DNA of 64,000 bases, taken from NCBI RefSeq assembly GCF_014202315.1, contig NZ_JACHGN010000001.1, positions 21,757-85,756 on the forward strand, written 5' to 3'. The notes under the pieces were generated by a model. It was not told the DNA's origin. It did no database searches and worked only from the letters and a program-made list of their open reading frames with translations. A program made the translations under genes and the position numbers. The first letter of the stretch is position 1. Each line of letters opens with the position of its first letter. Of this stretch, positions 11,659 to 53,546 are shown piece by piece. The DNA comes from Thermocatellispora tengchongensis (GTDB taxonomy: Bacteria > Actinomycetota > Actinomycetes > Streptosporangiales > Streptosporangiaceae).

Positions 11659-13224
11659 ATGGCGAGATCATCGAGACGACCCGCACGCGCCACAGTGATC
11701 ACGGCCGGTGCCGCGCTGGGAGTCTTCGCACTGGGCGCCGGGCTCGGCGTCGTCGTCTCCGGAGGCTCCGAAGGCACGATGCGGCTCGCCGCCGGCACAT
11801 ATCGGCTGGACGACGACGGCCGGCTCCTCACCACCGAGCCTCCCGCCTCGGAGCAGGAGGCCGCGCCCCTCTCCGACGCCGACATGGGCAGCACGATCAC
11901 GGACGCCGCGGATGACGAACGCGTCTGCCTGACCACGACCACCGACGGCCGGGCCGTCGGCTCCTCCGGACGCGACTGCACCCCGCTGCCGTTCGTGGGC
12001 GGTGCGGCGGGCGCGTTACGCCCCGGCAACCCCAAGCATCCCCCACGCCCGACGGCGACCCCCAGCGCGACGGGCAGCCCCACCGCCACCCCCAGCGCGA
12101 CGGGCAGCCCCACCCGCACCCGGACGGCCCCGCCGTCCCCCCGCCCGACGCCCACCATGACGGGCACGCCCCGCCCGAGCGCGCCGCCCACGCGCACGCG
12201 CACGCCGGCCCCGACCGCCAGCCCCAGGCCGTCCACCACGGCGACCGGGTGCGTGCTGCGCGCGCCCAACGGGGTCGCGCTCACCCCGGCCATGCCGCAG
12301 AGCGGCAACGGCGACCGGGGCCGGCCGCGGCCCACCGGATGCCCGGCGCCCACGACGTCCGTGAGCGCGAGCACCGGCGTGACCCCCACCGCCCCGGGCA
12401 CGCCGACCCGCGACGGCGGCAACCGCGAGATCCTGCCCCCGCGCACCCCCGACGCGCCCCCCACCCAAGCGCCCCGCCCCGGCGCGCCGACCGCCGACGC
12501 ACCCGGTCCCGGCGCACCCACCGCCGACGCACCCGGCCCCGGCGCACCCACCGCCGACGTCCCCGCCCCCGCGCCCAGCGCGGGTGACGGGAGCCGCGAC
12601 GTGGTCCCGCCGACCACGCCCAGCCAGGCGCCCACCGGCAGCCCCTCGCCGGGCACCGAGGGTGGCGGCGACGGGGCGGACAGCCTGCCGGTGTTCCGCG
12701 ACCCCGAGCTGCTGCGGCGGGCGTACGAGGCGCTGGGCATCGGCACGCGCGACTACATCGACGAGAACGGCGTGTGGGACCTCAACGTGGCGCCGCCCGG
12801 CACCCCGCCGTGCCGCGACTACACCGAGGAGGAGCTGGAGCGCCTGCGCGAGCAGGCGGGCGACCGGGGCCTGCCCACCGGCGTGATCCCGCGCGACTCG
12901 TGCCTGTGGCCGGCCTTCATCCGCTGGCTGCTCGCCGACCCGGCGCCGGGCGAGGTGAGCAACTGGACCAAGTTCACCGGCCTGCCGGACCGGAACCTGG
13001 ACATCGAGGTCGTCGATCCGGCGAGCCCGGCACCCGTCGCGACGCCGGCCGTCCCGGCGCAGGAGGTGCCACAGGCGCCGGATCGGCCCGGCGACGGCCG
13101 TGACGACGGCCGTGATGACGGCCCCGACGACGGCTACGGGCGGCCGGAAGGCTACGAGGAGGGGCAGGTGAACGGGTTCGGCCGGGACGAGGCCGGGCCG
13201 GATGGTCCGGGATTCACGGAATGA
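11659..13224 (+). CDS. secreted Pro/Thr-rich repeat protein
   Basis: ATG at 11659 with a GGAGAGGAG RBS, a signal-peptide-like N-terminus, PTATPSATGS x2 and APTADAPGPG x3 repeats, and an acidic C-terminal tail. Confidence 0.7.
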   Translation: MARSSRRPARATVITAGAALGVFALGAGLGVVVSGGSEGTMRLAAGTYRLDDDGRLLTTEPPASEQEAAPLSDADMGSTITDAADDERVCLTTTTDGRAVGSSGRDCTPLPFVGGAAGALRPGNPKHPPRPTATPSATGSPTATPSATGSPTRTRTAPPSPRPTPTMTGTPRPSAPPTRTRTPAPTASPRPSTTATGCVLRAPNGVALTPAMPQSGNGDRGRPRPTGCPAPTTSVSASTGVTPTAPGTPTRDGGNREILPPRTPDAPPTQAPRPGAPTADAPGPGAPTADAPGPGAPTADVPAPAPSAGDGSRDVVPPTTPSQAPTGSPSPGTEGGGDGADSLPVFRDPELLRRAYEALGIGTRDYIDENGVWDLNVAPPGTPPCRDYTEEELERLREQAGDRGLPTGVIPRDSCLWPAFIRWLLADPAPGEVSNWTKFTGLPDRNLDIEVVDPASPAPVATPAVPAQEVPQAPDRPGDGRDDGRDDGPDDGYGRPEGYEEGQVNGFGRDEAGPDGPGFTE

Positions 13225-17155: not shown

Positions 17156-18886
17156 ATGACCCCCCGCAGTTCCTCCCGGCGCCACAAGCTGGTCTCCGGC
17201 CTCCTCCTCGCCGGGGTCTCCGCTACGACCGGCGCGGTCATCGCATATCCGTGGGCCGCCGCGGCCGATCCGGCCTCACCCGAGGCGGCCTTACCCTCGG
17301 GCGTCGAGACGCCCGACCCCACGTCGGCCCCGGCTCCCCAGGAGATCCCCCCGGGGCCGTCCGAGAACGAGGAGCCGACGGACGCCGCGACGGACGAGAA
17401 CACCGCCCCTCCCCCCGAGGAGCAGACCCAGCCCCCCGCGGACGACCCGCCCTCCGCCGAGACACCCACCGAGGCGCCCACCGACACACCGCCGGAGACT
17501 CCCACCGAGGCGCCCACAGAGCCCCCGACCGAGACACCGACTGAGGCGCCGACCGATTCGGAGACGTCCCCGCCCACCGAGACGGCGCGGCCGTCCCTGC
17601 GCCCGACGTACACGCCGCCGTCCAGGCACCGCAACCGCGAGCGCCGCCCCGCCCGTCGCGCCGCCCCCACCCCGGCCCCCTCGACCAGCACGCCGACGGC
17701 CACGACCACCACGCCCCCGAGCCAGGAGCCGATCGAGACACCGACCAATACACCGACCAATACCCCCATCAAGACACCGACCAAGACACCGACCGAGGCG
17801 CCCACCCCCACACCCACCCCCACGCCCACGGGCACGGGTTCCACCGCACCGCCGACCACCTCACCCCCGGCCACGACCGCACCCCCCAAGTCCACCCCGA
17901 AACCGAAGAAGACCCCACCCGCGAAGAAGACCCCGAAACCCAAGACCACGCCGAAGCCCAAGGCCACCTCGAAGCCGAAGCCCACGCCCAAGACGACCCC
18001 CAAGACGACCCCGAAGGCGACGCCCAAGGCGACCCCGAAGGCGACGCCCAAGACCACACCCAAGACGACGCCCAAGACGACGCCCAAGCCCAAGACGGGC
18101 TCCACGGCGGCGCCCACCAAGACCCCGCCCAAGGCACCCCCGAAGACGAGCCCCGCCCCGAGCCCGACCCCGGCACAAACGCAGAGCCCGACACGAACAC
18201 CACCGCAGACGCAGACACCACCCACCCAGGCGCCGCCTCAAACCCAGGCGCCGACGCTGCAGGCGACCCCCACCCCCACGACTCCGCCCACCGTCTCGGC
18301 GTCGCAGCGGGCGACGGTCACCCCCACCCCCACCCCCACCCCCACGACCACGACCACGACCACGACCGCCGGCCCCGTGGGACCGCCGCCGGCGCAGCCG
18401 CAACCCGTGGCGCCCGTGCCGCCGGTGCAGCACCAGCAGGTGCCGCCGGCCGCGGCGAAGAAGGTGCTGCCGATGCCGCCGTTGAAGCGCGCGTCGTCCT
18501 GCCTGCCCTACGACCCGGCGGGCTGCTGGAGCCTGGCCCCGTGGCGGGGCCGCACGGTGTCCGGGATCGCGGCCACCCCGGCCGCGGCGGCCAAGCAGTT
18601 CGCCGAGCCGGCGGGCACCCCGAGGTGGGCCTTCGCGCCGCCGGTCGTGCCCCCGCCGCAGGCGGCCGTCACCCCGACCGCCACGCCCACGCCGACCCCC
18701 ACGACCACCGTGCCCACGACCACTGTGCCCACGACCACTGTGCCCACGACCGTGCCAACGACGACCGTGCCAACGACGACCGCGCCACCCGCCACCACGT
18801 CGGCCAAGCGCGCCGCGCCGCGCGCCGGCTGCTGGTCCTTCAGCCCGTCCGCGCTCTGCGCCAGGTCTGAGGAGCGCCGCCCATGA
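17156..18886 (+). CDS. secreted mucin-like Pro/Thr/Lys-rich repeat protein
   Basis: Signal peptide (LLLAGVSATTGAVIAYPWAAAA), then (TEAPTDTPPE)n and (TPKT/A)n repeat tracts, with Cys-containing C-terminal segments. Confidence 0.7.
   Translation: MTPRSSSRRHKLVSGLLLAGVSATTGAVIAYPWAAAADPASPEAALPSGVETPDPTSAPAPQEIPPGPSENEEPTDAATDENTAPPPEEQTQPPADDPPSAETPTEAPTDTPPETPTEAPTEPPTETPTEAPTDSETSPPTETARPSLRPTYTPPSRHRNRERRPARRAAPTPAPSTSTPTATTTTPPSQEPIETPTNTPTNTPIKTPTKTPTEAPTPTPTPTPTGTGSTAPPTTSPPATTAPPKSTPKPKKTPPAKKTPKPKTTPKPKATSKPKPTPKTTPKTTPKATPKATPKATPKTTPKTTPKTTPKPKTGSTAAPTKTPPKAPPKTSPAPSPTPAQTQSPTRTPPQTQTPPTQAPPQTQAPTLQATPTPTTPPTVSASQRATVTPTPTPTPTTTTTTTTAGPVGPPPAQPQPVAPVPPVQHQQVPPAAAKKVLPMPPLKRASSCLPYDPAGCWSLAPWRGRTVSGIAATPAAAAKQFAEPAGTPRWAFAPPVVPPPQAAVTPTATPTPTPTTTVPTTTVPTTTVPTTVPTTTVPTTTAPPATTSAKRAAPRAGCWSFSPSALCARSEERRP
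17455..18110 (+). repeat. in-frame low-complexity tandem repeats (PTEAPTE... and TPKTTPKATPK...)
   Basis: Visible nucleotide periodicity (gag/acc/ccc/aag/acg units) encoding PT(E/K) repeats inside the 17156..18886 CDS. Confidence 0.6.
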
Positions 18887-19635
18887 TCACCCGCATGTTC
18901 GTACGGACCGCCGCCCTCGCCGCCGTCCTCACGCTGGCCGTGAGCTCCGCCGCGTTCGCCCGTGAGAACGGGACGGCGGTGAGCCCGTGCCCGTCCGGGG
19001 TGGCCCTGGAGGGCTGGGGCGAGCCGGCCTTCTGCGAGGAGTTCGAGACCGTCCTCGATCCGGCGGAGTGGGTGCTGTACGACTCGCCGGGCCACGCGGG
19101 CAACGGCATCCGCTCGCCGGGGCAGGCGTTCATCGGCGGCGGCTCGCTGTTCCTGTACGGCACGGCCGACGGCACCACGGCCGGGATGGCGACCAGGTAC
19201 AGCCAGCCGTACGGCCGGTGGGAGGCGCGCATCCGGCTGTACCCGGGGGCCGGCTCCTACCATCCGGTGGCGCTGCTGTGGCCGGACGGCGGGGGCGGGA
19301 ACGTGCGCAGCGCGACCGGCGAGGAGATCGACTACCTGGAGGTCATCGACGATCCGGAGCGGCAGCGGGCCAACTTCTTCCTGCACGTGGGCGGACGCCA
19401 GGAGCAGGCGCACGCGAACGTGGACATGACCCAGTGGCACACGTACGCGGTGGAGAACACCCCCGACGGCGTGGTCGGCTACCTGGACGGGCGGGAGTGG
19501 TTCCGCTCCTCCCAGCACACCACGAGCCCGATGTCGGCCACGTTGCAGCTCGACTGGTTCCCCGGCGAGGGCACGCCGGGCGAGGCGTGGATGGAGGTGG
19601 ACTACCTGCGCATCTACCGCTCCCCGGCGGGCTAG
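18883..19635 (+). CDS. secreted glycoside hydrolase family 16 (beta-glucanase-like)
   Basis: Signal peptide and the GH16 catalytic motif EIDYLE. ATGA overlap with the upstream gene. Confidence 0.85.
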   Translation: MITRMFVRTAALAAVLTLAVSSAAFARENGTAVSPCPSGVALEGWGEPAFCEEFETVLDPAEWVLYDSPGHAGNGIRSPGQAFIGGGSLFLYGTADGTTAGMATRYSQPYGRWEARIRLYPGAGSYHPVALLWPDGGGGNVRSATGEEIDYLEVIDDPERQRANFFLHVGGRQEQAHANVDMTQWHTYAVENTPDGVVGYLDGREWFRSSQHTTSPMSATLQLDWFPGEGTPGEAWMEVDYLRIYRSPAG

Positions 19636-19651
19636 CTCGGGCCAGCTCGGG

Positions 19652-20002
19652 CTAGCTCGATTCCTGGCCGCGATCGTCGGCGAGATCGTCGGCGAGTTCG
19701 TCGGTGAGGAGCAGGTCGCGGCGTACCAGGCCCGAGCGGTACGCGCCCCGCCCGATCATGTGCGCCGCGACCGGGCCGGTGACGAGCTGGAACAGGCCGG
19801 TCAGGGCGAGGATGCCGATGTCGAGCGGGGCGTCGGTGCGCAGGCCGACCGCGACCAGGGTCAGCACCATCCCGATCACCTGCGGCTTGGCGCCCAGGTG
19901 CAGGCGGGACAGGAGGGTCGGGAAGCGGAGCAGGCCGATCCCGGCGGTGAGCGACAGCACCGCGCCGACCAGCAGCAGCGCCCCGGCGACGAGGTCACTC
20001 AT
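19652..20002 (-). CDS. mnhG: Na+/H+ antiporter subunit G (MnhG/MrpG)
   Basis: 116-aa membrane protein with the MnhG-type pattern. It is the last gene of a co-oriented seven-subunit mnh/mrp operon. Confidence 0.8.
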   Translation of the reverse strand: MSDLVAGALLLVGAVLSLTAGIGLLRFPTLLSRLHLGAKPQVIGMVLTLVAVGLRTDAPLDIGILALTGLFQLVTGPVAAHMIGRGAYRSGLVRRDLLLTDELADDLADDRGQESS

Positions 20003-20776: not shown

Positions 20777-22320
20777 GACGGCAGCACCGCCGCGATGTAG
20801 GGGGCGCGGGCGAGGAGTTCCGCGGCGGCGCGGCGGGTGTAGTCGACCATGGGCCCGGCGGCGACGGTGAAGGCGGTGGCGAAGGCGACCAGCGCCCAGG
20901 CCGGGCCGGTCATCGCCGGCGGCGGGACGGCGGCGGTGATCGCGGTGCCGCCGATGCCGCGCCGGCCCTCGATCACCTGGCCCGGCTCGGGCACCTGGCG
21001 GCGTTCGCCCCAGAAGGCCCGGTTCCACACCCAGCAGATCGCGTACAGGGTGAGCAGGCTGGTCAGCAGCGCGACCCCCACCATCGCGTACGCCCCCGCC
21101 GTGCCGGCCGCGATCCCGGCCTGGATCAGCCCGAGCTTGCCGAGGAAGCCCGACAGCGGCGGGATGCCGGCCAGGTTCATCGCGGGGACGAAGAACAGCA
21201 CCGCGAGGGCGGGCGCGACCCGGGCCAGGCCGCCGAGGCGGGTGAGGGAGGTGCTGCCGCCGCGCCGCTCGATCAGGCCGGTGACCAGGAACAGCGTGGT
21301 CTGCACGGTGATGTGGTGGGCCACGTAGAAGATCGCGCCGGCGAGCCCGGCCACGGTGGCGAGGCCGACGCCGAAGACCATGTAGCCGATGTGGCTGACC
21401 AGGGTGAAGGACAGCATCCGCTTGATGTCGGTCTGCGCGACCGCGCCGAGGACGCCGATCAGCATGGTCAGCGCCGCGGCCACGAGCAGCAGGGTGCCCA
21501 GCCGGTCGCCGGGGAACAGCAGCGTCTGGATCCGGATCATGGCGTAGACGCCGACCTTGGTGAGCAGGCCGGCGAACACGGCCGTGACGGGGGCCGGGGT
21601 GGTGGGGTAGCTGTCGGGCAGCCAGGCCGACAGCGGGAAGACCGCGGCCTTGATCCCGAAGGCCACGAGCAGGGTGAGCTGGAGGATCAGCCGTACGCCG
21701 TCGGGGAGCGCGTCCAGGCGCCCCGCGAGCTGGGCCATGGTCAGCGTGCCCGTGGCGGCGTAGCACAGCCCGACCGCGATCAGGAAGATCATCGAGGAGA
21801 CCAGGCTGACCACGATGTACGTCATGCCGGCCCGCACCCGGGCGCCCGTGCCGCCCAGTGTGATCAGCACGTAGCTGGCGGTCAGCAGGATCTCGAACCC
21901 GACGTACAGGTTGAACAGGTCGCCCGCCACGAACGCGTCCGAGACCCCCGCGACCAGCGCGAGGTAGGCGGGGTGGAAGACGGCCAGCGGGGTGGCCTCG
22001 TCCTTGTCGGCGGAGCCCTGGCCGATGGCGTACACGACCACGGCGAGCGTGATCACGCTGGAGATGAGCAGGATGAGCGCGGAGAGCCGGTCCACGACGA
22101 GCACGACCGCGATCGGCACCGGCCAGCCGCCGGGCCGCATGGTCTGCGGGCCGTGGGCGTCGGTCTGGTGCACCAGGACCGCGGCGATGACCACGATCAG
22201 CGCCAGCACGCCGACCGTGATGCCGCGCTGCGTGCGGGCCAGCCGGGGGCCGATGGCCAGCTTGATCCCGGCCGCGAACAGCGGCAGCACCACCGGGAGG
22301 GGCACCAGGGCGTTGCTCAC
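20773..22320 (-). CDS. mnhD: Na+/H+ antiporter subunit D (MnhD/MrpD, NuoN-like)
   Basis: 515 aa, polytopic, with the complex I antiporter-like proton-pumping fold (NADH dehydrogenase subunit N/M family). GTG start overlaps the mnhC stop. Confidence 0.85.
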   Translation of the reverse strand: MSNALVPLPVVLPLFAAGIKLAIGPRLARTQRGITVGVLALIVVIAAVLVHQTDAHGPQTMRPGGWPVPIAVVLVVDRLSALILLISSVITLAVVVYAIGQGSADKDEATPLAVFHPAYLALVAGVSDAFVAGDLFNLYVGFEILLTASYVLITLGGTGARVRAGMTYIVVSLVSSMIFLIAVGLCYAATGTLTMAQLAGRLDALPDGVRLILQLTLLVAFGIKAAVFPLSAWLPDSYPTTPAPVTAVFAGLLTKVGVYAMIRIQTLLFPGDRLGTLLLVAAALTMLIGVLGAVAQTDIKRMLSFTLVSHIGYMVFGVGLATVAGLAGAIFYVAHHITVQTTLFLVTGLIERRGGSTSLTRLGGLARVAPALAVLFFVPAMNLAGIPPLSGFLGKLGLIQAGIAAGTAGAYAMVGVALLTSLLTLYAICWVWNRAFWGERRQVPEPGQVIEGRRGIGGTAITAAVPPPAMTGPAWALVAFATAFTVAAGPMVDYTRRAAAELLARAPYIAAVLPS

Positions 22321-38636: not shown

Positions 38637-39752
38637 ATGCGCACGCACCCCGCGTGGGCCGCGTGGGCCCGCGGCGACATCGACGAGGCCGCCCGCCTGG
38701 CGGCCGAGCACGGCCACGACCGGGTGCTCGTGCTCACCGACCTCGTACGCGGCCGGTACGAGCCCGCCCTGGCCCGCTACGCCGCCAAGCCCCGGCGCGA
38801 CCTGGCCGAGCCGATCGCGCACGCCCTGCTGCACCTCCGCCGCACCGATGAGGCGCACGACCTGGCCCGCCGCCTGCTCGGCGACCGCCGCACACCGCCC
38901 GATCTGGCGCTCCGCCGCGCCCGCCCCCTGACCGTGGCGGCGTCCGGCACGGTCACACTGCCCTTCTGCGACCACCCACTGGCCCCCTACCTCCCCGCCG
39001 TCGCCGGACAGATCGAGGGCCGGCGCACGCCGATCCACCTGGACACCGGCGGCACGTTCCTGGTCATGGGCCTGGAGCGGGCGGAATCGCTGGGCATCGC
39101 CTCGGTCCCCAACGGCCGGCACGCCCACGGCGTCACGCGTACGCCCGCCCGCTTCGGCATCGCCCGCGAACTCGTGCTCGGCGACGTCAGGCTGACGAAC
39201 GTGCCGGTGGACATCCTGCCCACCTTCACCGGTGTCCAGGACCTGGTGATCATGGGCACCAACCTGCTGCAATGCTTCCTGGCCACGATCGACCACCCGG
39301 CGAGCCGCCTGATCCTCGCCCCGCGCGGCACCCCGCCCCCGCCCGGCCTCCGCATCCCGTTCTACCTATGGGGCGATCACTACATGTTCGCCCGCGGCGG
39401 CTACGGCGAACGCCGCGACCTCACCTTCTTCATCGACTCCGGGCTGGTCATGGTGCACCAGGCCGACGACGGGCCACCGCGGCAGGCGTGCGCGTACGCG
39501 ACCCGGCGCCAGTACCGGGTGGCGTGGGGCATCCCGCGCCACCGCGCCGCGACCGCGTTCCACGAGGCCGAACACCCCGTCAGGCTCGGCCCCCTGGAAC
39601 AGCCCGGCCACCTCCTGGCCACCACCCCCACCCGCCGGACCCCCTGGTCCTCCTTCGGCGGCGTGCGCATCCACGGCCTGCTCTCCCACGCCTTCCTGAG
39701 CCGTTACGCCTGGACGCTGGATTTCGACCGGCACGAGTACACCTTCGGCTGA
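38637..39752 (+). CDS. retropepsin-like (clan AA) aspartic protease domain protein
   Basis: The PIHLDTGGTFLVMG motif (D-T/S-G) is the catalytic signature of retroviral-type aspartyl proteases. The C-terminal ~200 aa have no recognised family. Confidence 0.7.
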   Translation: MRTHPAWAAWARGDIDEAARLAAEHGHDRVLVLTDLVRGRYEPALARYAAKPRRDLAEPIAHALLHLRRTDEAHDLARRLLGDRRTPPDLALRRARPLTVAASGTVTLPFCDHPLAPYLPAVAGQIEGRRTPIHLDTGGTFLVMGLERAESLGIASVPNGRHAHGVTRTPARFGIARELVLGDVRLTNVPVDILPTFTGVQDLVIMGTNLLQCFLATIDHPASRLILAPRGTPPPPGLRIPFYLWGDHYMFARGGYGERRDLTFFIDSGLVMVHQADDGPPRQACAYATRRQYRVAWGIPRHRAATAFHEAEHPVRLGPLEQPGHLLATTPTRRTPWSSFGGVRIHGLLSHAFLSRYAWTLDFDRHEYTFG

Positions 39753-39845
39753 CATGATCGGCCATTTGAACATGAGGCGATGGCAACGGTGGCGGTCGCC
39801 GCCCTGGCGGTCCTGGCCGACCGCGCCGCCGCCATCGAGACCCGC
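39753..39845 (+). repeat. chimeric duplicated fragment: copy of 42222-42286 (lipoprotein gene start) fused to a copy of 37826-37869 (3' end of the giant ATPase gene)
   Basis: catgatcggccat...gaacatgaggcgatggcaacggtggcggtcgcc matches 42222-42286. The next stretch, gtcgccgccctggcggtcctggccgaccgcgccgccgccatcga, matches 37826-37869 with 2 mismatches. Confidence 0.6.
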
Positions 39846-39905
39846 CACCTCCCAGTGACTCCCCGCCTTGACATACCGTGAAGTGACGCCAAGGGGGGAG
39901 GCCGG

Positions 39906-41186
39906 ATGGCGGGAGCCCAGGCCGAGCGGAACCGGATCGATTTCCTGGTGGAGATCGGCTTCCGGCTGTCGGCCGCGCTCAACGTACGGCGGTGCGCGTA
40001 CGCGGCGGCGCGGCTGGCGACCACGTATCTGGCCGAGGTCGCGGCCGTGGCCCTGGGGCCGGACGAGCGGCACCGGGTGCGGTGGGTGCGCACCGTGGCG
40101 GGGCGCGACGACGCCGAGGAGGGCGAGGTCGCCGGCCGCGCCGCGGTCGCGGTGCCGGGGCTCGGCGAGTCGCCGGGCGACCTGCCGGGGTCGGCGCGCC
40201 GGCTGAAGCCGGACGAGGTGCCGGAGTGGCTGCTCCCGCCCGCGCTCGCCGCCGGCCGGCAGGTGCTGGTGGTCACGCTGTCCGGCCCCGCCGCCCCCTG
40301 CGGGGCGCTCTTCCTCGTCCGGCACGGCCCGGACGATGACCCCGACGCGGAACCGCTGGCCCGCGCCCTGGCCGAACGCGCCGGTGCCGCCATCTGCGCC
40401 GCCAGGCTGTACGAGGAGCAGTGCGCGATCAACGACGCCCTGGCCGCCGACCTGCTCCCGTCGCCCCTGCCCGAGTTTGAGGGGGTGGACCTGGCCGGCT
40501 CGCTGCGCGCCTCCCAGCAGGCGGGCCGGCTCGGCGGCGACTTCTACGACGTCCACCTCCCCCCGGCCGGCGGCGCGCCGGAGCCGACGCTGGCGGTGCT
40601 CGGCGACGTGTGCGGCAAGGGCGTGCAGGCGGCCGCGCTCGCCGGACGTGTACGCCACAGCCTGCGCGCGCTGCTGCTCCTGGAGCGGCGCCCCGAGCGG
40701 CTGGCCGACCTGCTCAACCGGACCCTGCTCGACTCGCCCACCCCCTATTCGCACGTCACGCTGGTCCTGGCCGCGCTGAGCCGGGCCCCCGACGGGCACG
40801 TGCGGCTCGGCCTCGCGGTGGCCGGGCACCCGCCGCCGCTCATCCTGCGCCGCGACCGCTCGGTGGAGGAGGTCTCCTCCACCGGCTGCATGCTCGGCGT
40901 CCTGCCCGACATCGGCGTACGCACCGTGCCCGCCGACCTCGCGCCCGGCGAGGTGTGCCTGCTCTACAGCGACGGCGTGACCGAGGCGTTCGGCGGCCCG
41001 GCCGGTCACGAGATGTACGGCGACGACCGGCTCAAGACCGCCCTCGCCTCCTGCGCCGGAATGCCGGCCGCCGCGGTGGTGGCGCGGCTGGAGCAGCTCG
41101 GCAGCGAATGGCTGGCCGGCGGCGAGCACGACGACCGGGCGCTGCTGGCCATCCGGTGTCCCCTCCCCTCCGCGCCATGGACCTGA
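39906..41186 (+). CDS. PP2C-family serine phosphatase (SpoIIE/RsbU-like) with N-terminal GAF-like sensor region
   Basis: C-terminal PP2C motifs GGDFYD, LGDVCGKG and YSDG, and the regulatory arrangement typical of RsbU-type phosphatases. The sequence TTGACA at 39868-39873 is a possible -35 promoter element. Confidence 0.85.
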   Translation: MAGAQAERNRIDFLVEIGFRLSAALNVRRCAYAAARLATTYLAEVAAVALGPDERHRVRWVRTVAGRDDAEEGEVAGRAAVAVPGLGESPGDLPGSARRLKPDEVPEWLLPPALAAGRQVLVVTLSGPAAPCGALFLVRHGPDDDPDAEPLARALAERAGAAICAARLYEEQCAINDALAADLLPSPLPEFEGVDLAGSLRASQQAGRLGGDFYDVHLPPAGGAPEPTLAVLGDVCGKGVQAAALAGRVRHSLRALLLLERRPERLADLLNRTLLDSPTPYSHVTLVLAALSRAPDGHVRLGLAVAGHPPPLILRRDRSVEEVSSTGCMLGVLPDIGVRTVPADLAPGEVCLLYSDGVTEAFGGPAGHEMYGDDRLKTALASCAGMPAAAVVARLEQLGSEWLAGGEHDDRALLAIRCPLPSAPWT

Positions 41187-41208
41187 AGGCGCCATGGACC
41201 TGAAGGCC
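41173..41208 (+). repeat. 17-bp perfect tandem duplication (cgccatggacctgaagg x2) spanning the PP2C stop and the next gene's start
   Basis: Read directly from the sequence. Copy 1 supplies the PP2C C-terminus (PWT-stop), and copy 2 supplies the MDLKA start of the B12-binding gene. Confidence 0.7.
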
Positions 41209-42216
41209 GCCCAGGACCGCTATCTGGAGCGCGCCGCCGAGGCCGACGCCCGGGGCGCGGTGGACCTCGTGCTCGGGCTGCTGGACGACGGCGTACCGGC
41301 CGAGGACGTGCTGCTGCGGGTGATCGCGCCGGTGCAGCGGCGGGTGGGCGAGCTGTGGGCCGCCAACACGTGGTCGGTGGCGCGCGAGCACGCGGCCACC
41401 TCCGTGAGCGAGACGGCCGTGGCCGCGGTCGCCGTACACGCGCGGCCCCGGCCGGCGCGCGGCCGGATCACGGTGGCCTGCACCGACGGCGAGTACCACG
41501 CGCTGCCCGCCCGCCTGCTCGCCGAGGTGCTGCGCCTGCGCGGCCATCGGGTGGACTTCCTCGGCGCCAGCGTCCCCGGCGGGCACCTGCTGTCCTACCT
41601 GCACCAGACCGGCCCCGACGCGGTGGCCGTGAGCTGCACTCTGCCCACCCGGCTGCTGCGCGCCCACGGCCTGATCACCGCCTGCCGCGCGGCGGGCGTA
41701 CCGGTGCTCGCGGGCGGCGCCGGCTTCGGCCCCGACGGCCGCTACGCCCGGACGCTGGGCGCGGACGCCTGGGCGCCCACCGCCGACGCCGCCGCGGACA
41801 TCCTGGACTCCGGCGGCCTGCCCGCCTTCCCGCCCGTGCCCGACGGCGCGCTCCGGGTCGCGGACAAGGAGACCGCCGAACTCCTCCGCCGCCGCACCGC
41901 CCTGCTCGCCGCGGTGCTGGACGACCTCGGCCGCGCCTACCCGCCCATGTCCGCCTACGACCCGGAGCAACTGGAGCGCACCGCCGAGGACCTGGGCCAC
42001 ATCGCCGACTTCCTGTCCACCGCCCTGTTCGTGGACGACCCGGCCCTGTTCACCGGCTTCGTCACCTGGACCCGCGACATCCTGCTGGCCCGCGGAGTGC
42101 CACCGGAACCGCTCGTGACCGGCCTGCGGGTCATGCGCGACCGCCTCCCCGGCCTCCCCCGAGCCCGGGAGCTCCTGACCGAGGGCATCCGCGCCGCCAT
42201 GGCCGGACTGGCATAA
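41194..42216 (+). CDS. cobalamin (B12)-binding domain protein lacking a DNA-binding domain
   Basis: An N-terminal helical B12-binding_2 region and a Rossmann-like B12-binding core (ITVACTDGEYHALPARLLAEVLRLRGHRVDFLGASVP). There is no MerR HTH. Confidence 0.7.
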   Translation: MDLKAAQDRYLERAAEADARGAVDLVLGLLDDGVPAEDVLLRVIAPVQRRVGELWAANTWSVAREHAATSVSETAVAAVAVHARPRPARGRITVACTDGEYHALPARLLAEVLRLRGHRVDFLGASVPGGHLLSYLHQTGPDAVAVSCTLPTRLLRAHGLITACRAAGVPVLAGGAGFGPDGRYARTLGADAWAPTADAAADILDSGGLPAFPPVPDGALRVADKETAELLRRRTALLAAVLDDLGRAYPPMSAYDPEQLERTAEDLGHIADFLSTALFVDDPALFTGFVTWTRDILLARGVPPEPLVTGLRVMRDRLPGLPRARELLTEGIRAAMAGLA

Positions 42217-42254
42217 TCGGCCATCCCACCAGCCCCCCTCACCCCAGGACGAAC

Positions 42255-43097
42255 ATGAGGCGATGGACAACGGTGGCGGTCGCCGCACTGATCGCGTCCG
42301 CCCCGGCCGTACTCGCGACCCCGGCCTCCGCCACGGCGGCCCCTGACCCGGTGCAGGCGCTCAAACGCCAGTTCCGCCCCGAGAAGGGCGTCCACATCAC
42401 CGAGGTCGCCCGCATGACCTACAAGGGCGAGGCGAGCAGGACCCGGGTCTCCGGCAGGATCCAGTTCGCCGCGACCGGCCCCGTCGCCTTCGACGGCACG
42501 AGCTACGTGGTCCCCGAGCGGGAGGACGTCATCGCGCCCGTCAACGAGCCGACCGACATGACGCTCGTCGGCCGGCGACTGTACCTGTCGTGGGACGGCC
42601 TCCCGGACGGCAAGAAGTGGGTGACCCTGGACCTGGGCGATTTCTTCACCGCGCACGACCTGAGCGCGCAGAGGATCACGGTCCTGAACCCGTCGGTACT
42701 CAACGCGATGCTGCGAGGGCGCACCGGCGAGCCGGTCTCCGGCGGCTACTTCTACCAGGGCAAGGTGACCTACGCCGACCTGTACCGGGCCGACCCGAAG
42801 CACTACGGTTCGGTGCTGAAGGCCCTGCGGATCAGCGCGCCCTCCAAGCAGACGATCGCCTTCAAGCTCTGGACGAGCCGCGACGGCCTGCCCACCCGCC
42901 TGATGACCTCCGAGACCGAGCGGAACAAGCGGACGAGCCGCAGCATAGACACCCGCTACACCGACTGGGGCGCAGAGGTCATCGTCCTCGCCCCGCCCGC
43001 CGACGAGACCATTCCCTTCGACGATGTGCCCCTCGACGACCCGGAGCCCAAAGAGATCCTGAACGTCCTCCCGGGCCGCGCCCGCGACGCCGCCTGA
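42255..43097 (+). CDS. secreted hypothetical protein (signal peptide)
   Basis: ATG at 42255 in frame with ORF 41355..43097, with a signal peptide MRRWTTVAVAALIASAPAVLATPASA. GC3 is high. Confidence 0.7.
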   Translation: MRRWTTVAVAALIASAPAVLATPASATAAPDPVQALKRQFRPEKGVHITEVARMTYKGEASRTRVSGRIQFAATGPVAFDGTSYVVPEREDVIAPVNEPTDMTLVGRRLYLSWDGLPDGKKWVTLDLGDFFTAHDLSAQRITVLNPSVLNAMLRGRTGEPVSGGYFYQGKVTYADLYRADPKHYGSVLKALRISAPSKQTIAFKLWTSRDGLPTRLMTSETERNKRTSRSIDTRYTDWGAEVIVLAPPADETIPFDDVPLDDPEPKEILNVLPGRARDAA

Positions 43098-43193
43098 GCC
43101 CTCACGCGGGCGCGCTCCCGCCTTCGTACAGGGCCGCCTGAGCCCCCACGTGGGCGCGCTCCCGCCACGCGGCCGGGAGCGCGCCCACGGCGC

Positions 43194-43559
43194 TCAGAGC
43201 TTGTTACCCGGCGCCTCGTGCGGCACCGGCCACACCTCCACGGCGTTCTGAGCCGCGAACGGGATCTCGGCGGCGATCTCCAGGGCGCGCTGCTCGCTCG
43301 GCACGTCGATCAGGTACCAGCTCGCCAGGTACTCCTTGGCCTCCAGGTACGGCCCGTCGGTCACGACCGGCACCCCCTCGCGCACCCGCACGACCTTGGC
43401 CTCGGCCGCGTCGGCGGTCCCGTACGCGCCGAGCAGTTCCCCCGTCTCGGCGTACTTCCGGTTGAACGCGTCCTGCGCCGCGATGGCCTTCTCCGTCTCC
43501 TCCGGCGGGAACGACTCCCACAGCTCGGCGTTGCCGTAAATGATGATCATGTACTTCAC
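43194..43559 (-). CDS. YciI-family protein
   Basis: 121 aa with the MKYMIIIYGN start, typical of the YciI-like / Dabb stress-protein family. Confidence 0.85.
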   Translation of the reverse strand: MKYMIIIYGNAELWESFPPEETEKAIAAQDAFNRKYAETGELLGAYGTADAAEAKVVRVREGVPVVTDGPYLEAKEYLASWYLIDVPSEQRALEIAAEIPFAAQNAVEVWPVPHEAPGNKL

Positions 43560-43720
43560 GACCGATCTCCTCCCGTACCGGCACCCCGTCTGGGCGCCCT
43601 TTCACCCACCGGTCGGAACCGGCACGCCTTCCTCGACATCCCACCCCCAAGATTGCGCAAAGAATGCCCGGAAAGTGCTGATCTTCCAGCAGGGCAGGGG
43701 GCAGACCTGCGGAAACGTCA

Positions 43721-43760
43721 CATGCTAACGAGCATGCTAACTAACATGCGAGTTAGCATG
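43721..43760. promoter_or_regulatory. composite operator-like element: CATGCTAAC x2 direct repeats plus inverted copy GTTAGCATG
   Basis: Read directly from the sequence in the divergent promoter region between the YciI gene and the AlbA_2-domain regulator gene. Confidence 0.4.
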
Positions 43761-43763
43761 TAG

Positions 43764-43800
43764 TTGGGTGGCCGAGGGGACGTTGGGTGGCCGAGGGGAC
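43764..43800 (+). repeat. 18-bp tandem duplication (ttgggtggccgaggggac x2) abutting the ATG at 43801
   Basis: Read directly from the sequence. It contains a purine-rich RBS-like GAGGGGAC in each copy. Confidence 0.7.
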
Positions 43801-45549
43801 ATGGTGCTCGACCCAGAGCTCGCGGAAATCGTCGACAACCTCCGTACCATCGGCGCGGACATCGCCGACGTCGAGGTGAAGAAGGCCCAGGGAGGCCTGC
43901 CCAGGTCGCTGCGCGAAACGCTCTCGGCGTTCGCCAACACCCGAGGTGGCGTGATCATCCTAGGGCTGGACGAAACCCAGGGCTTCGCGGCGACGGGCCT
44001 GACCGATCCGGCGGACGTGGCCGCGGGTCTGGGCGCCATGTGCGCGGAGGACATGGAACCACCGCTGAGACCTCTTATCAAGATCCATCGGTTCGAGGGC
44101 ACTCACATACTGGTCGCGGAGGTCCCCGAACTCGATGCTGCTCAAAAGCCCTGCTTCTCGCGGTCCGCGGGCATCACCAAGGGCAGCTACGTCAGGGTCG
44201 GCGACGGCGATCGCCGGCTGTCGGCCTACGAGGTGCAGGTCATGCTGTCCTCCCGAGGCCAGCCTCGGGAGGACGAACAGGCCGTACGAGGGGTGGGGTT
44301 GGAGCACCTCGACCCCGCAGGCGTGGACGCGTTGATCGGCCGGCTACGCATCAGCAGGCCGTATGCGTTCAAGGATCTCACCCCGATGGCGGTGCTGCGG
44401 CGCGCCAAGGTGCTTGTGCCGGACGGCCACGGTGGTGAGGCGGTCTCGCTGGCCGGGCTTCTGGCACTTGGGCGCTACCCACAGGAGCACTTTCCTCAAC
44501 TGATGGTCACCTTCGTCCACTATCCCACCCCCAGCGGATCGCGACCTGATGCGCGGTTTCTGGACAACGTAACGCTGGAAGGCCCGATCCCGATCATGGT
44601 CCGCGACACCCTCGCAGCGATACGTCGCAACATGTCGCGCAGAGCGGTCATCGAAGATGCGGGCCGCGAGGATGTCTGGGAGTATCCGGAGACGGCGCTG
44701 CGGGAAGCGGTGGTGAACGCCTTGGTTCACCGTGACCTGTCCACCGGCGCGCGCGGCACTCAGGTCCAGGTCGAGATGTATCCCGACAGATTGCTTATTC
44801 GCAATCCCGGTGGACTGTTCGGTCCTGTCAGCATCGACAGCCTGGGCGAAGAGGGCATCTCCTCCGCCCGTAACGCCATTCTCATCAAACTCCTGGAAGA
44901 TGTCCCCCTGCCCGGTGAGAGCCGTACCGTCTGCGAGAATCGCGGGTCGGGTATCCGGGCCATGCTCAACTCATTGCTGGCCGCGGGCATGAGCCCGCCG
45001 CAGTTCGATGACAAAATCTCCTCTTTCGTGGTCCTCTTCCCCAACCACACGCTCCTGAGTGAGGAGATTGTCGGCTGGATCCGCAGTCTGGGAGAGAAGG
45101 GTCTGACCGACAGTCAGTGCGTCGCCCTGGCCCTGCTACGCGAAGAGGGAAGCCTCGACAACCGCGCATACCGCAACGCGACCGGTGTGGACTCACGCGT
45201 CGCCACCGCCGAACTCCGGGACCTCGTCGCCCGTGAGCTCATAACCCAGTCAGGGACTCGCCGCTGGGCCAGGTATCTGCTGTCCCAGCGCCACACCGAG
45301 ACGACGGATCAGTCCGCGCGCGCCGACCGCAGGCCGCAACTGCTGGCGGCTCTTGGAGAGCAGACTCTGTCCCGGGCCGAGTTGGTGTCGCGGACCGGAC
45401 TCGGCGATCAGACGGTCCGGAGGTGGTTGAAGATCCTCCGGGACGAGGGCCTGATCGAGACCGTGGGAAGCCCCAAGAGCGTTCACGTCCGATATCGCCG
45501 CACGCGTCAAGAACCACTCTTCCCGCACGGGAACTCGGGGCGCGACTGA
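43801..45549 (+). CDS. AlbA_2 (Schlafen-like divergent AAA) + HATPase_c_4 + C-terminal wHTH putative transcriptional regulator
   Basis: The domain order matches the widespread 'ATP-dependent DNA helicase RecG-related / putative DNA-binding' family. GC content is visibly lower (~64%) than the flanking genes, with frequent A/T-ending codons. Confidence 0.8.
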   Translation: MVLDPELAEIVDNLRTIGADIADVEVKKAQGGLPRSLRETLSAFANTRGGVIILGLDETQGFAATGLTDPADVAAGLGAMCAEDMEPPLRPLIKIHRFEGTHILVAEVPELDAAQKPCFSRSAGITKGSYVRVGDGDRRLSAYEVQVMLSSRGQPREDEQAVRGVGLEHLDPAGVDALIGRLRISRPYAFKDLTPMAVLRRAKVLVPDGHGGEAVSLAGLLALGRYPQEHFPQLMVTFVHYPTPSGSRPDARFLDNVTLEGPIPIMVRDTLAAIRRNMSRRAVIEDAGREDVWEYPETALREAVVNALVHRDLSTGARGTQVQVEMYPDRLLIRNPGGLFGPVSIDSLGEEGISSARNAILIKLLEDVPLPGESRTVCENRGSGIRAMLNSLLAAGMSPPQFDDKISSFVVLFPNHTLLSEEIVGWIRSLGEKGLTDSQCVALALLREEGSLDNRAYRNATGVDSRVATAELRDLVARELITQSGTRRWARYLLSQRHTETTDQSARADRRPQLLAALGEQTLSRAELVSRTGLGDQTVRRWLKILRDEGLIETVGSPKSVHVRYRRTRQEPLFPHGNSGRD

Positions 45550-50919: not shown

Positions 50920-52040
50920 TCGACCACGAGCGCAGGCTGTACCTCGCGGCGCACCCGGTCGCGTACCCGCTGCTGCGGCTGCTGGCCAGGCTGGGCCCGG
51001 TCGTGCGGGTGCCCGGCCTCGGCGTCGTGGTGAACGACGCCGCGACCGCCCGCGCGGTGCTGATGGACGAGCGTTTCCGCAAGGACGGCCCCGGTTCCCC
51101 GGGCGACCTGTGGACGCCGGTGCTGGGCCCGTCGGTGCTGCTGAACATGGAGGGCCCGGCGCACCTGGCGCTGCGCCGCAAGCTGGCGCCGCTGTTCGCG
51201 CCCGCGTACGTGGCGGGCCTGGTCGAGGACGTGCTGCGCGCCCCGCTCAAGGAGCTGGACGAACGGCTGGCCCGCGGCGACCGGGTGGACCTGGTGGACG
51301 CGATGCGGCTGATGGCCGGGGCGGTGATCTGCCGGGTGATCGGCCTGGGCGAGGTGCCGGAGGCCAGGGCGCGGGAGCTGTTCGCGGACGGCGAGCGGGT
51401 GGTGGCGATGGTGTCGCTGCGCTCGCGCGGCCTGTCGCCGCGCCAGATCGCCGTGGCGCGCGAGGTGCTGGACCGGATCGGCGACATCGCCGCCGCCGCG
51501 TACGCCGAGGGCGACGAGACGACCGTGATGGGCCGGATGCGGGCGCTCGGCCTGTCGGAGGCGGAGGCGCGCGGCGCGGCCGGGGCGTTCTTCCTGACCG
51601 GCACCGAGACCGTGGCCACGTTCGTGCCGCGCCTGGTCGCGCTGATCCACGACCACGGGACCCGGGTCACCGACCTGGACGCGGCCATCGAGGACGCCAT
51701 GCGGGTGACCACCCCGACCCCGGTCATGCTGCGCTCGGTGGCCGAGCCCGCCCGCATCGGGCGCGCCCGGGTGCGGCCGGGCGACCGCGTGATCATCGCC
51801 ACGCACAACTGCGCCCGCGCGTACGGGCCGTTCGACCCGGACGCCGCCCGGCCGCCGGAGGTGCGCCGGCTGTGGTTCGGCGCGGGCCCGCACTTCTGCA
51901 TCGGCTACCCCCTGGCGCTGGCCGAGATCCGCGCGGTGGCCTCCGTGGTGCTGGCGCACCGGCCCCGCGTCGTGGCCCGCCGCGCGGCCCGCGGCGTGCT
52001 CATCCCCACCTACCGGAACCTGTGGATAACCGCTTCATGA
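50916..52040 (+). CDS. cytochrome P450
   Basis: Heme-binding loop FGAGPHFCIGYPLA and an ExxR motif. GTG start overlaps the GT2 stop. Confidence 0.9.
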   Translation: MIDHERRLYLAAHPVAYPLLRLLARLGPVVRVPGLGVVVNDAATARAVLMDERFRKDGPGSPGDLWTPVLGPSVLLNMEGPAHLALRRKLAPLFAPAYVAGLVEDVLRAPLKELDERLARGDRVDLVDAMRLMAGAVICRVIGLGEVPEARARELFADGERVVAMVSLRSRGLSPRQIAVAREVLDRIGDIAAAAYAEGDETTVMGRMRALGLSEAEARGAAGAFFLTGTETVATFVPRLVALIHDHGTRVTDLDAAIEDAMRVTTPTPVMLRSVAEPARIGRARVRPGDRVIIATHNCARAYGPFDPDAARPPEVRRLWFGAGPHFCIGYPLALAEIRAVASVVLAHRPRVVARRAARGVLIPTYRNLWITAS

Positions 52041-53512
52041 TCATGGACATTGTGGCCGGCGTGCTGGACACCGCACGCCGCTCCCCCGGCGCGGTCGCCG
52101 TGATCGACGGCCGCGGGCGGCCGGTCACGTACGGCGAGCTGCGCGAGCGCGTGCTCGCGGTGCGCGCCGCCGTGACCGTCTCGCGCCCCGGCGAGGGTGT
52201 GCTGTTCGCCGTACGCCCCGGCCCGGAGGCGGTCGCGCTCGCGCTGGGCGCGGTCGCCGCGGGCGGCATGCTCGTCCTGGTGGACCCGGGCGTGGCCCCG
52301 GACGTGTTCGCGGCCCGGATGGCCGCCGCCCGGCCCGGCTGGGTGGTCACCGAGTCGCTGCTCTATCTGCTCAGCGGCCCGCTGGCGGGCCTCGCCCGGC
52401 GCCGAGGGCTCCAGCTCCCGCGGCTGGCCGACCCGGTGCCGGGGACGCCGCTGCGGCACGTCTACACCGGGCCGTGGCTGCCGGGCGTGCCGCGCGGGGC
52501 GTACCGGCTGAGGCGCGGCCCCGCCCCGGAACCCGAGGACGGCGCCGGCGAACAGGACGCCGTGGTCGTGTTCACCTCCGGCACCACCGGGCAGCCCAAG
52601 GGCGTGGTGCATTCGCGCGCCTCGCTGGCCCGCGGCGTGGACATGTTCCGGGCCGCGTTCCCGCTGGGGCCCGGCGACGTGGTGCACACCGACCAGCTCA
52701 TGCTGGGCCTGCCCGCGCTGATGGCCGGGGCGACCTGGTCCCTGCCCGGCTCGGCCGGCCGTTTCGCGGCGGAGCTGGCCGAGCGCCGCGCCACGCACGC
52801 CTTCGCGGTCCCGGTGCGCCTGGACGCCGCGCTGCGCGCCGCTGGAACGCTCCCGGGCACGCTGCGCCACCTGCTGCTCGGCGCCGCGCCCGCGCCGCCG
52901 GCCGTGCTGCGCCGGGCCGTCGCCGCCGCGCCGAACGCCGAGGTGCTGTCGGTGTACGCGATGACCGAGGCGCTGCCGATCGCCGTCGCCACGGCGGAGG
53001 AGAAGCTGGCCTGCCAGGAGGGCGACCTGCTCGGCGCGCCCCTGCCCGGGGTCGGCGTCCGGATCGCCGAGGACGGCGAGCTGCACGTCTCGGGCCCGCA
53101 CCTGGCCCGCCGCTACCTGGGCGGCCCGCCGCTGGCCGAGGTGCCGACCGGCGACCTGGTACGCCTCGACGCCGAAGGCCGGCTGGTCCTGCTCGGCCGC
53201 AAGAAGGACATGATCCTGCGCGACGGCGTGAACATCTACCCCGGCCTGTACGAGCCCGCCGTCGCCGCCTTCCCCGGCGTCGCCGAGGCGGCGATCGTGG
53301 GCCTGGCCGACCCGGAGACGGGGGACGAGGAGGTCGTGCTGGCCGTGGTGCCCGCCGACGGCTACGACGAGGGCAGGCTGCGGGCCGCGCTGCCCGGGTT
53401 CGTGGACGCCGGGGCCCTGCCCGATCGCATCGTCGCCCTGCCCGCCCTGCCCCGCTCCGGCCGCGCCGCCAAGCTGGACCGCGCCGCCCTGCGCGAGGCG
53501 GTCCGGGCATGA
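52037..53512 (+). CDS. AMP-dependent synthetase/ligase (acyl-CoA / fatty-acyl-AMP ligase family)
   Basis: AMP-binding motif VFTSGTTGQPKGV and downstream adenylate-forming core motifs. ATGA overlap with the P450 stop. Confidence 0.85.
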   Translation: MIMDIVAGVLDTARRSPGAVAVIDGRGRPVTYGELRERVLAVRAAVTVSRPGEGVLFAVRPGPEAVALALGAVAAGGMLVLVDPGVAPDVFAARMAAARPGWVVTESLLYLLSGPLAGLARRRGLQLPRLADPVPGTPLRHVYTGPWLPGVPRGAYRLRRGPAPEPEDGAGEQDAVVVFTSGTTGQPKGVVHSRASLARGVDMFRAAFPLGPGDVVHTDQLMLGLPALMAGATWSLPGSAGRFAAELAERRATHAFAVPVRLDAALRAAGTLPGTLRHLLLGAAPAPPAVLRRAVAAAPNAEVLSVYAMTEALPIAVATAEEKLACQEGDLLGAPLPGVGVRIAEDGELHVSGPHLARRYLGGPPLAEVPTGDLVRLDAEGRLVLLGRKKDMILRDGVNIYPGLYEPAVAAFPGVAEAAIVGLADPETGDEEVVLAVVPADGYDEGRLRAALPGFVDAGALPDRIVALPALPRSGRAAKLDRAALREAVRA

Positions 53513-53546
53513 GACCCGGGCATGAGGACCCAGGCATGAGGACCAT
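53506..53546 (+). repeat. three tandem ~13-bp units (gcatgagRaccc/gcatgaggacc) over the ligase stop and epimerase start
   Basis: Read directly from the sequence: gcatgagacccgg / gcatgaggaccca / ggcatgaggaccatgg. Each unit carries an ATGA start/stop overlap motif. Confidence 0.6.

Follow-up and report, generated by a model that had tools for sequence, protein, structure and literature searches.

In a 64,000-nucleotide stretch of the Thermocatellispora tengchongensis genome (contig NZ_JACHGN010000001.1, forward-strand positions 21,757 to 85,756; hereafter the window), a 17-bp segment is perfectly duplicated in tandem at the junction of two co-directional genes, which encode a SpoIIE/PP2C-type protein phosphatase and a photocobilin-type B12 photoreceptor. 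We consider it likely that this is a lineage-specific short duplication that spans the stop-start overlap of the gene pair and left the two genes as separate after the event as they had been before it; its fitness effect, as we infer, was near-neutral. Both proteins are unaltered because the duplicated unit carries the stop codon of the upstream gene together with the start codon of the downstream one.

The unit CGCCATGGACCTGAAGG occurs twice head-to-tail with nothing between the copies, which are 100% identical and together occupy 34 bp (Table 1). Each copy reads cgccatggacctgaagg, and the junction as a whole runs ...ccgCGCCATGGACCTGAAGGCGCCATGGACCTGAAGGccgccc.... Tandem Repeats Finder reports the interval 41172-41207 with a period of 17, 2.1 copies, 100% matches, and 0 indels. 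This interval is one base longer on each side because of a 2-nt "GC" microhomology, and the self-match run at offset 17, found in a scan for perfect tandem duplications, covers 19 positions, that is, the unit plus the microhomology. The initial annotation of the window had described a perfect 17-bp duplication here, and the repeat is confirmed as real; its end, placed there at 41208, was set 2 nt too far and lies at 41206.

A repeat of this kind is far beyond chance for the composition of the window. When the window was simulated 100 times under a second-order Markov model, no perfect tandem duplication with a period of at least 13 arose, and the longest period obtained was 12, at 0.07 per window. 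Even if up to 3 mismatches are tolerated, the 17-mer has no third site in the window, and a dispersed repeat or the end of a mobile element was rejected on this ground. Across 7,023 bp, the Logan assembly of the Sequence Read Archive run SRR12365043 shows 100% identity to the window, the 17-bp duplication included. Thus, the duplication is not a stutter specific to one assembler.

The repeat unit contains the element ATGGACCTGA, in which the photoreceptor start ATG is followed 7 nt further on, in the +1 frame, by the phosphatase stop TGA. At present, the phosphatase ends as ...APWT-TGA within copy 1 and the photoreceptor begins as MDLK within copy 2, as the initial annotation had stated and as the list of open reading frames (ORFs) and their translations confirm. 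After removal of one copy in silico, the PP2C and B12 proteins are unchanged and still separate, and their genes overlap by the 10 nt of ATGGACCTGA. Because deletion of one copy alters neither protein, the single-copy ancestor had two overlapping genes and no fusion. The duplication therefore copied an existing stop and an existing start and created neither, and the junction changed from a 10-nt overlap to a 7-nt spacer. The initial annotation had proposed instead that the 17-bp frame shift keeps the ORFs apart, so that its reversal would fuse the phosphatase with the B12 sensor. Neither statement holds, since the TGA in the phosphatase frame lies inside the unit, before any frame change, and the one-copy junction yields the same two proteins. 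A phase-variable simple sequence repeat (contingency locus) was also considered. The junction does not fit this class, because one and two copies give identical proteins, no ORF is switched, and the unit is present only twice.

Two new features have nevertheless appeared at the junction. One is an 8-codon mini-ORF, MDLKAPWT, in which four codons from the photoreceptor start are followed by one codon across the junction and by three from the phosphatase end. It begins at the ATG orphaned in copy 1, its TGA overlaps the true photoreceptor start, and its translation is predicted. The other is a weak Shine-Dalgarno (SD)-like element, GAAGG. The duplex energy of the 20 nt upstream of the start with the 3' end of 16S rRNA is -5.2 kcal/mol now versus -0.5 kcal/mol in the single-copy arrangement. 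The context of the latter is C-rich, and its value is weaker than at all 103 orthologue junctions (the weakest of which has -1.7); the reference medians are -5.1 kcal/mol for the window background and -7.1 kcal/mol for the orthologues. As to a new promoter or terminator created by the duplication, a consensus scan of positions 39600-43900, of a type unsuited to actinobacterial promoters, found no promoter-like site, and the one terminator-like site in the same region is unrelated.

The phosphatase ORF is identical to the protein HNP84_000057 of T. tengchongensis in NCBI (P0121) and matches the Pfam family SpoIIE (PF07228) over residues 228-418 with E=2.1e-38. The B12 ORF likewise equals an NCBI protein of this species (P0001). 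It has Pfam matches to B12-binding_2 and B12-binding and a full-length match to the SasPcob structures 8J2X/8J2W (E about 2e-96), the alignment to 8J2X spanning residues 4-338. Photocobilins are photoreceptors that combine adenosylcobalamin and biliverdin (PMC10979010). The motifs defined there for the B12 module, namely the CarH-like W-x9-EH and the E/DxH with the lower axial His, are represented by W55-x9-E65-H66 and E100-x-H102 and are invariant in a 32-sequence alignment. D266 and W292 are the equivalents of the biliverdin-binding Asp270/Trp296 of SasPcob, with the numbering offset taken from the 8J2X alignment. These features assign the gene product, as a predicted photoreceptor, to the photocobilin type. 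The likeness to the photocobilins SasPcob and AbDPcob (PMC10979010) bears on the identity of the gene and not on the duplication. SasPcob is genomically associated with both SpoIIE/PP2C and STAS proteins (PMC10979010), whereas the window locus has no STAS gene 3' of the photocobilin gene. The 280-aa ORF that is found downstream instead has no Pfam match and is not conserved in related loci. Because neither this ORF nor the aspartyl protease gene upstream recurs in any of the related loci, only the PP2C-photocobilin pair is a conserved unit.

Related loci were collected by a genome scan, which returned 80 loci, and a metagenome scan, which returned 49. With the window locus (L001) they provide 116 junctions, from Streptosporangiaceae, Micromonosporaceae, and others, at which a PP2C gene lies directly upstream of a photocobilin gene. 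The genes are separate and co-directional at every one of these junctions. An overlap of 4 nt (ATGA/GTGA) is observed in 77 cases and an overlap of 1 nt (TGATG) in 24, together 101 of the 116; one locus has an overlap of 8 nt (L006) and one an overlap of 13 nt (L130), the largest in the set. In total, 103 junctions overlap by 1-13 nt and the remaining 13 have a spacer. The stop-to-start arrangement of the phosphatase and photocobilin genes is kept in more than 100 actinobacterial loci. Short overlaps of this type are enriched in subunits of complexes (Huber et al. 2019, PMC6728339; Huber et al. 2023, PMC10666635). The orthologous junctions, being mostly of the -4 or -1 kind, correspond to the coupled ATGA/TGATG pairs described in these studies. 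The window junction differs from them by its 7-nt spacer and the bridging mini-ORF, and the 10-nt overlap proposed for its ancestor is also atypical.

The nearest relatives, Sphaerisporangium L003 (TGATG) and Microtetraspora L006 (ATGAGTGA), have single-copy, repeat-free junctions, and the junction is likewise devoid of a spacer or a repeat in 101 other loci. Because L003 and L006 are single-copy, the duplication is placed on the Thermocatellispora branch. The genome scan returned no other Thermocatellispora locus, and the next-best proteins are 72% (B12) and 67% (PP2C) identical. The initial annotation suggested that the event may be a very recent slippage. The event is specific to this lineage, and a very recent date is plausible, although the age is bounded only loosely by relatives of at most 72% protein identity; by our estimate, two copies of 17 bp would likely stay identical up to roughly 5-10% neutral divergence. 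The phosphatases of the window, L003, and L006 are short (426, 431, and 434 aa, respectively), about 100-150 residues below most orthologues (500-630 aa), many of which have PAS or GAF matches at the N-terminus.

Fusion of the two proteins, a possibility raised by the initial annotation, was found once outside the 116 junctions, and by another route. A chimeric PP2C+B12 query retrieved a single fused protein among 499 matches. This protein, P0122 (908 aa, locus L082), is encoded by a 1.47-Mb metagenome contig (ENA ERZ25039463 contig_48131), and its junction keeps the ATGA, whose TGA falls in the +1 frame. Its closest relatives, at 81% identity, are from Streptantibioticus and Streptomyces, where the genes are separate and are arranged in the order PP2C, photocobilin, and STAS with two successive 4-nt overlaps. 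At positions 4570-4600 of L082, the phosphatase tail contains three copies of the 7-bp unit CCCGCAC. Removal of one copy yields a 22-codon tail, ...TRNRFPS, that ends on the ATGA and has the same length as in L132 and L133 (...TRGRFTA). The fusion thus exists because the third copy shifts the phosphatase frame into that of photocobilin. Both L082 and the window have a tandem repeat change of a length not divisible by three in the same junction region of the same gene pair (in L082, 7 bp, from two to three copies). However, in L082 the extra copy is located upstream of the stop and produces a fusion, whereas the window has its stop within the repeated unit and neither fusion nor fission results. 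Short-repeat slippage would therefore appear able to fuse this pair in a way different from the 17-bp event, although P0122 comes from a single contig and might be an assembly error.

The related loci also provide the wider context of the pair. In L132, L133, and L134 (Streptantibioticus/Streptomyces), the PP2C, photocobilin, and STAS genes are followed by a MarR gene, and the first two junctions are both 4-nt overlaps. In L082, the fused gene overlaps the STAS gene by 4 nt, and MarR again follows. This organization suggests that the Streptomyces-type loci form a light-sensing partner-switching operon whose genes are translationally chained, and such a chain fits the published enrichment of overlaps in complex subunits.

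Short tandem duplication by slipped-strand mispairing or microhomology-mediated repair is a general class of bacterial mutations. The window repeat resembles it in that its identical copies directly adjoin each other head to tail. It differs in that the unit spans a stop-start overlap, so that a length not divisible by three spares both genes. Most likely, the duplication would have originated by replication slippage or microhomology-mediated repair across the 2-nt GC repeat. The template also has an imperfect direct repeat, GCGCCATGGACC / GCCGCCCAGGACC, with a distance of 17-18 nt, and Tandem Repeats Finder lists in a second row an imperfect 12-13-nt direct repeat close by; the exact microhomology at the boundary is limited to the 2 nt. 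The unit held the stop-start overlap of a conserved and probably translationally coupled pair, so that copy 1 preserves the end of the phosphatase (C-terminus and stop) and copy 2 the beginning of the photoreceptor (start and N-terminus). Ribosomes leaving the phosphatase gene could then reinitiate at the ATG 8 nt downstream or reach this ATG via the mini-ORF, and coupling of the two genes was probably kept after the duplication.

Several points weigh against this scenario. The single-copy ancestor is inferred, the closest relative being 72% identical at the protein level. Coupling and translation of the mini-ORF are predicted, and the gain in SD strength reaches no more than the background of random 20-mers in the window. 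The initial annotation had advised that assembly stutter be ruled out; the duplication recurs in the Logan assembly, but that run may share reads with the deposited genome, so that an artefact at the culture or library level is possible. An artefact of assembly or sequencing, with a single copy in the real genome, is nevertheless very improbable. There is one genome of the species, and two perfect short duplications lie at most 2.6 kb apart in it (at 41172 and 43763). However, the structure measures only 34 bp, and one short read of typical length should span it; the independently built Logan contig is identical over 7 kb with both duplications included, and junction k-mers such as GAAGGCGCCATGG should be impossible to obtain from a single-copy template. 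A transposon-excision footprint in the form of a tandem target-site duplication, suggested by the 17- and 19-bp duplications 2.6 kb apart, was also considered, and no supporting feature was found. Target duplications of bacterial insertion sequences are generally much shorter than 17-19 bp.

It is hardly conceivable that the duplication acted as a frameshift that split an ancestral phosphatase-B12 fusion or, in the reverse direction, would create one. The length of the unit is not a multiple of 3, and P0122 demonstrates that fusion is mutationally accessible at this junction. On the other hand, deletion of one copy changes neither ORF, as the TGA of copy 1 is in the phosphatase frame; all 116 junctions are unfused, and the 120 best photocobilin relatives in each of two listings are stand-alone proteins of 329-385 aa. 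P0122 itself is owed to the third CCCGCAC copy, a different change. Together, the in-silico deletion and the survey of junctions rule out a fusion or fission origin. An unlikely possibility is that translation of the photoreceptor initially started at GTG 41156 (MSPPLRAMDLK...), and that the duplication frameshifted this leader and moved the start eight codons downstream to the ATG of copy 2. In that case, the event would have cost 8 N-terminal codons and would not be strictly protein-neutral, which is a further point against the proposed scenario. In the single-copy arrangement the GTG is in frame, the resulting N-terminus is as long as in the sister locus L006 (19 residues to the YLE motif), and leaders vary freely in the photocobilin family, from 0 to 38 residues. 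However, this start requires a 31-nt overlap, compared with at most 13 nt among the 116 junctions, and has no SD upstream (-2.8 kcal/mol). The leaders of the Microbispora orthologues and L003 are just 2-3 residues longer than MDLK, and the leader is dispensable for the fold, given that both the Pfam and the SasPcob alignments start only at residues 4-7.

Adaptive rewiring, in which the photoreceptor gene gained a ribosome-binding context of its own and looser coupling to the phosphatase, is compatible with a lineage-specific duplication that altered no protein, and we regard it as unlikely. The improvement of the anti-SD energy from a value weaker than at any of 103 orthologue junctions to -5.2 kcal/mol agrees with it, as does the less paired state of the start codon in the minimum free energy (MFE) fold after the duplication. 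Yet -5.2 kcal/mol is about the median of random 20-mers of the window, the 4-nt distance from SD to ATG is short, the MFE differences rest on arbitrary 75-nt windows, and neutral fixation accounts for the data equally well.

The 13 loci with spacers occupy at least 5-6 places on the neighbour-joining tree of photocobilin proteins. Besides the 7 nt in the window, the spacers are 34 nt in Planobispora L002 and L004; 16 nt in L088; 16 nt in Actinoplanes L068 and L070, 31 nt in L073, and 61 nt in L074 from the same genus; 40 nt in L077; and likewise 40 nt in the group of L096, L098, L101, and L118. All these lengths (7, 16, 31, 34, 40, and 61 nt) equal 1 modulo 3, and each of the 13 loci has a bridging mini-ORF, 6-22 codons long, whose start codon overlaps the upstream stop and whose TGA overlaps the downstream start. 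In the case of L074, the junction and the first ~20 codons form a diverged 65-bp duplication whose alignment score was reached by none of 2000 shuffles. The mini-ORF MTASTASRRLRDLHPVEEC parallels the N-terminus of the sensor, VSSSTAYRSLHDPDLIEEY, and this spacer plainly looks like an old duplication of the junction. For L004, L073, and L077, the score observed was attained in about 2-5% of the shuffles, and near-tandem repeats of the GTGAC junction motif are present in L032 and L088.

Duplication of an ATGA-type junction gives rise to the relay geometry only if its period equals 2 modulo 3. A period of 0 modulo 3 results in an in-frame N-terminal extension, and with a period of 1 modulo 3 ribosomes would pass over the true start in the wrong frame. 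By our reckoning, given 5-6 origins and within-clade changes in multiples of 3, the chance of the observed regularity is roughly 0.002-0.02, which suggests selection for a translational hand-off. The rationale for such selection is that published coupling decays steeply with spacer length: in reporter experiments, termination-reinitiation coupling was lost by 80-100% at a 38-nt spacer and varied at 2-14 nt (PMC10666635). A possible generalization, which we put forward tentatively and somewhat short of an even chance, is that duplication of stop-start overlaps is a recurrent source of spacers, that selection keeps the lengths leaving a relay mini-ORF, and that the 17-bp case is the youngest. 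The putative old duplications in L002, L068, and L070 are individually non-significant in the shuffling analysis, which counts against the main explanation of the 17-bp event. Among the papers listed in a literature search for tandem duplication of overlapping gene junctions, none mentions tandem duplication, and neither duplications nor indels come up in a 2026 preprint devoted to short gene overlaps.

By itself, the duplication is of little consequence, as no protein is changed. It provides a natural example of a frameshifting-length duplication that is tolerated when the unit contains the stop of a gene, its start, or both, and it corrects the tempting misreading of a slippage event that split a fusion. 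Conservation of the stop-to-start arrangement, which in Streptomyces extends to the STAS gene, argues for stoichiometric co-production of the two proteins in a light-responsive partner-switching module. If selection explains the bridging mini-ORFs, these would be natural evidence of how strongly termination-reinitiation coupling is maintained.

Table 1. Features of the phosphatase-photocobilin locus (positions within the window).
Feature	Position	Strand	Remarks
SpoIIE/PP2C-type protein phosphatase gene, 426 aa	39906..41186	+	Ends ...AIRCPLPSAPWT before the stop; ORF translation, Pfam, NCBI match
GTG, possible alternative ancestral start	41156..41158	+	In frame with photocobilin if single-copy (VSPPLRAMDLK...); now reads MSPPLRAMDLKAPWT and a stop
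Copy 1 of the 17-bp unit CGCCATGGACCTGAAGG	41173..41189	+	Last phosphatase codons, stop TGA 41184-41186, orphaned ATG 41177
Mini-ORF MDLKAPWT, 8 codons, created by the duplication (translation predicted)	41177..41203	+	Start codon overlaps the stop of the phosphatase gene (ATGGACCTGA); stop codon TGA overlaps the start of the photocobilin gene (ATGGACCTGA)
GAAGG, weak SD-like element	41185..41189	+	Owing to the duplication, lies upstream of ATG 41194 at a distance of 4 nt
Copy 2 of the 17-bp unit	41190..41206	+	ATG 41194 of the B12/photocobilin gene; second TGA 41201-41203 in the +1 frame
Photocobilin-type B12 photoreceptor gene, 340 aa	41194..42216	+	Four-helix bundle, B12 Rossmann domain, C-terminal globin-like bilin domain

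Other repeats were observed in the window and in the related loci. A 19-bp unit, GTTGGGTGGCCGAGGGGAC, is perfectly duplicated at 43763-43800, ending exactly at ATG 43801. The gene that starts there encodes Schlafen AlbA_2, HATPase_c_4, and winged helix-turn-helix (HTH) domains, and the duplication doubles its SD-containing leader. This repeat is likewise present in the Logan assembly, and the 17-bp and 19-bp units are the only perfect tandem duplications in the window with a period that is not a multiple of 3. Just upstream, positions 43720-43761 hold an operator-like palindrome array, ACATGCTAAC...GTTAGCATGT (20-nt arms, 85% complementarity), with three direct copies of CATGCTAAC spaced by 12 nt. 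This array may be an autoregulatory site of the HTH-containing Schlafen-like protein.

At 53506-53544, an AMP-binding enzyme gene (51110-53512) and a gene for an NAD-dependent epimerase (start MVVTGASG, 53545) meet at an ATGA overlap, and the junction is present in about three copies (GGCATGAG(G)ACCC, period 13-14, 92% identity). Two of the ATGs, at 53509 and 53536, share the frame of the epimerase, and the one at 53522 opens the short out-of-frame ORF MRTQA, which ends on the next ATGA, the same motif as the mini-ORFs at the spacer-bearing phosphatase-photocobilin junctions. Because the repeats at 43763-43800 and 53506-53544 fit alongside the 17-bp case, duplications of lengths not divisible by three would seem to be tolerated at gene boundaries, provided that a start or stop remains intact in one of the copies. 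A 10-bp tandem repeat, CGGGCTAGCT, is present in 3.2 copies (90%) at 19628-19659 and contains the TAG that ends the ORF 18883-19635, a putative gene. Dense in-frame arrays with periods of 12-36, rich in CCCACC/AAGACC-type units, are located at 12040-12571 and 17400-18790 and would encode Pro/Thr/Lys-rich low-complexity protein segments.

Among the related loci, Streptosporangium L014, L018, L023, L024, L025, L036, and L065 contain in-frame 9- or 12-bp tandem repeats (at about 2890-2990), some of them perfect, such as GACATCGAA in 5.4 copies. These repeats sit in a 20-38-residue N-terminal extension of photocobilin, whose N-terminal leader seems to be a hotspot at which slippage is tolerated.

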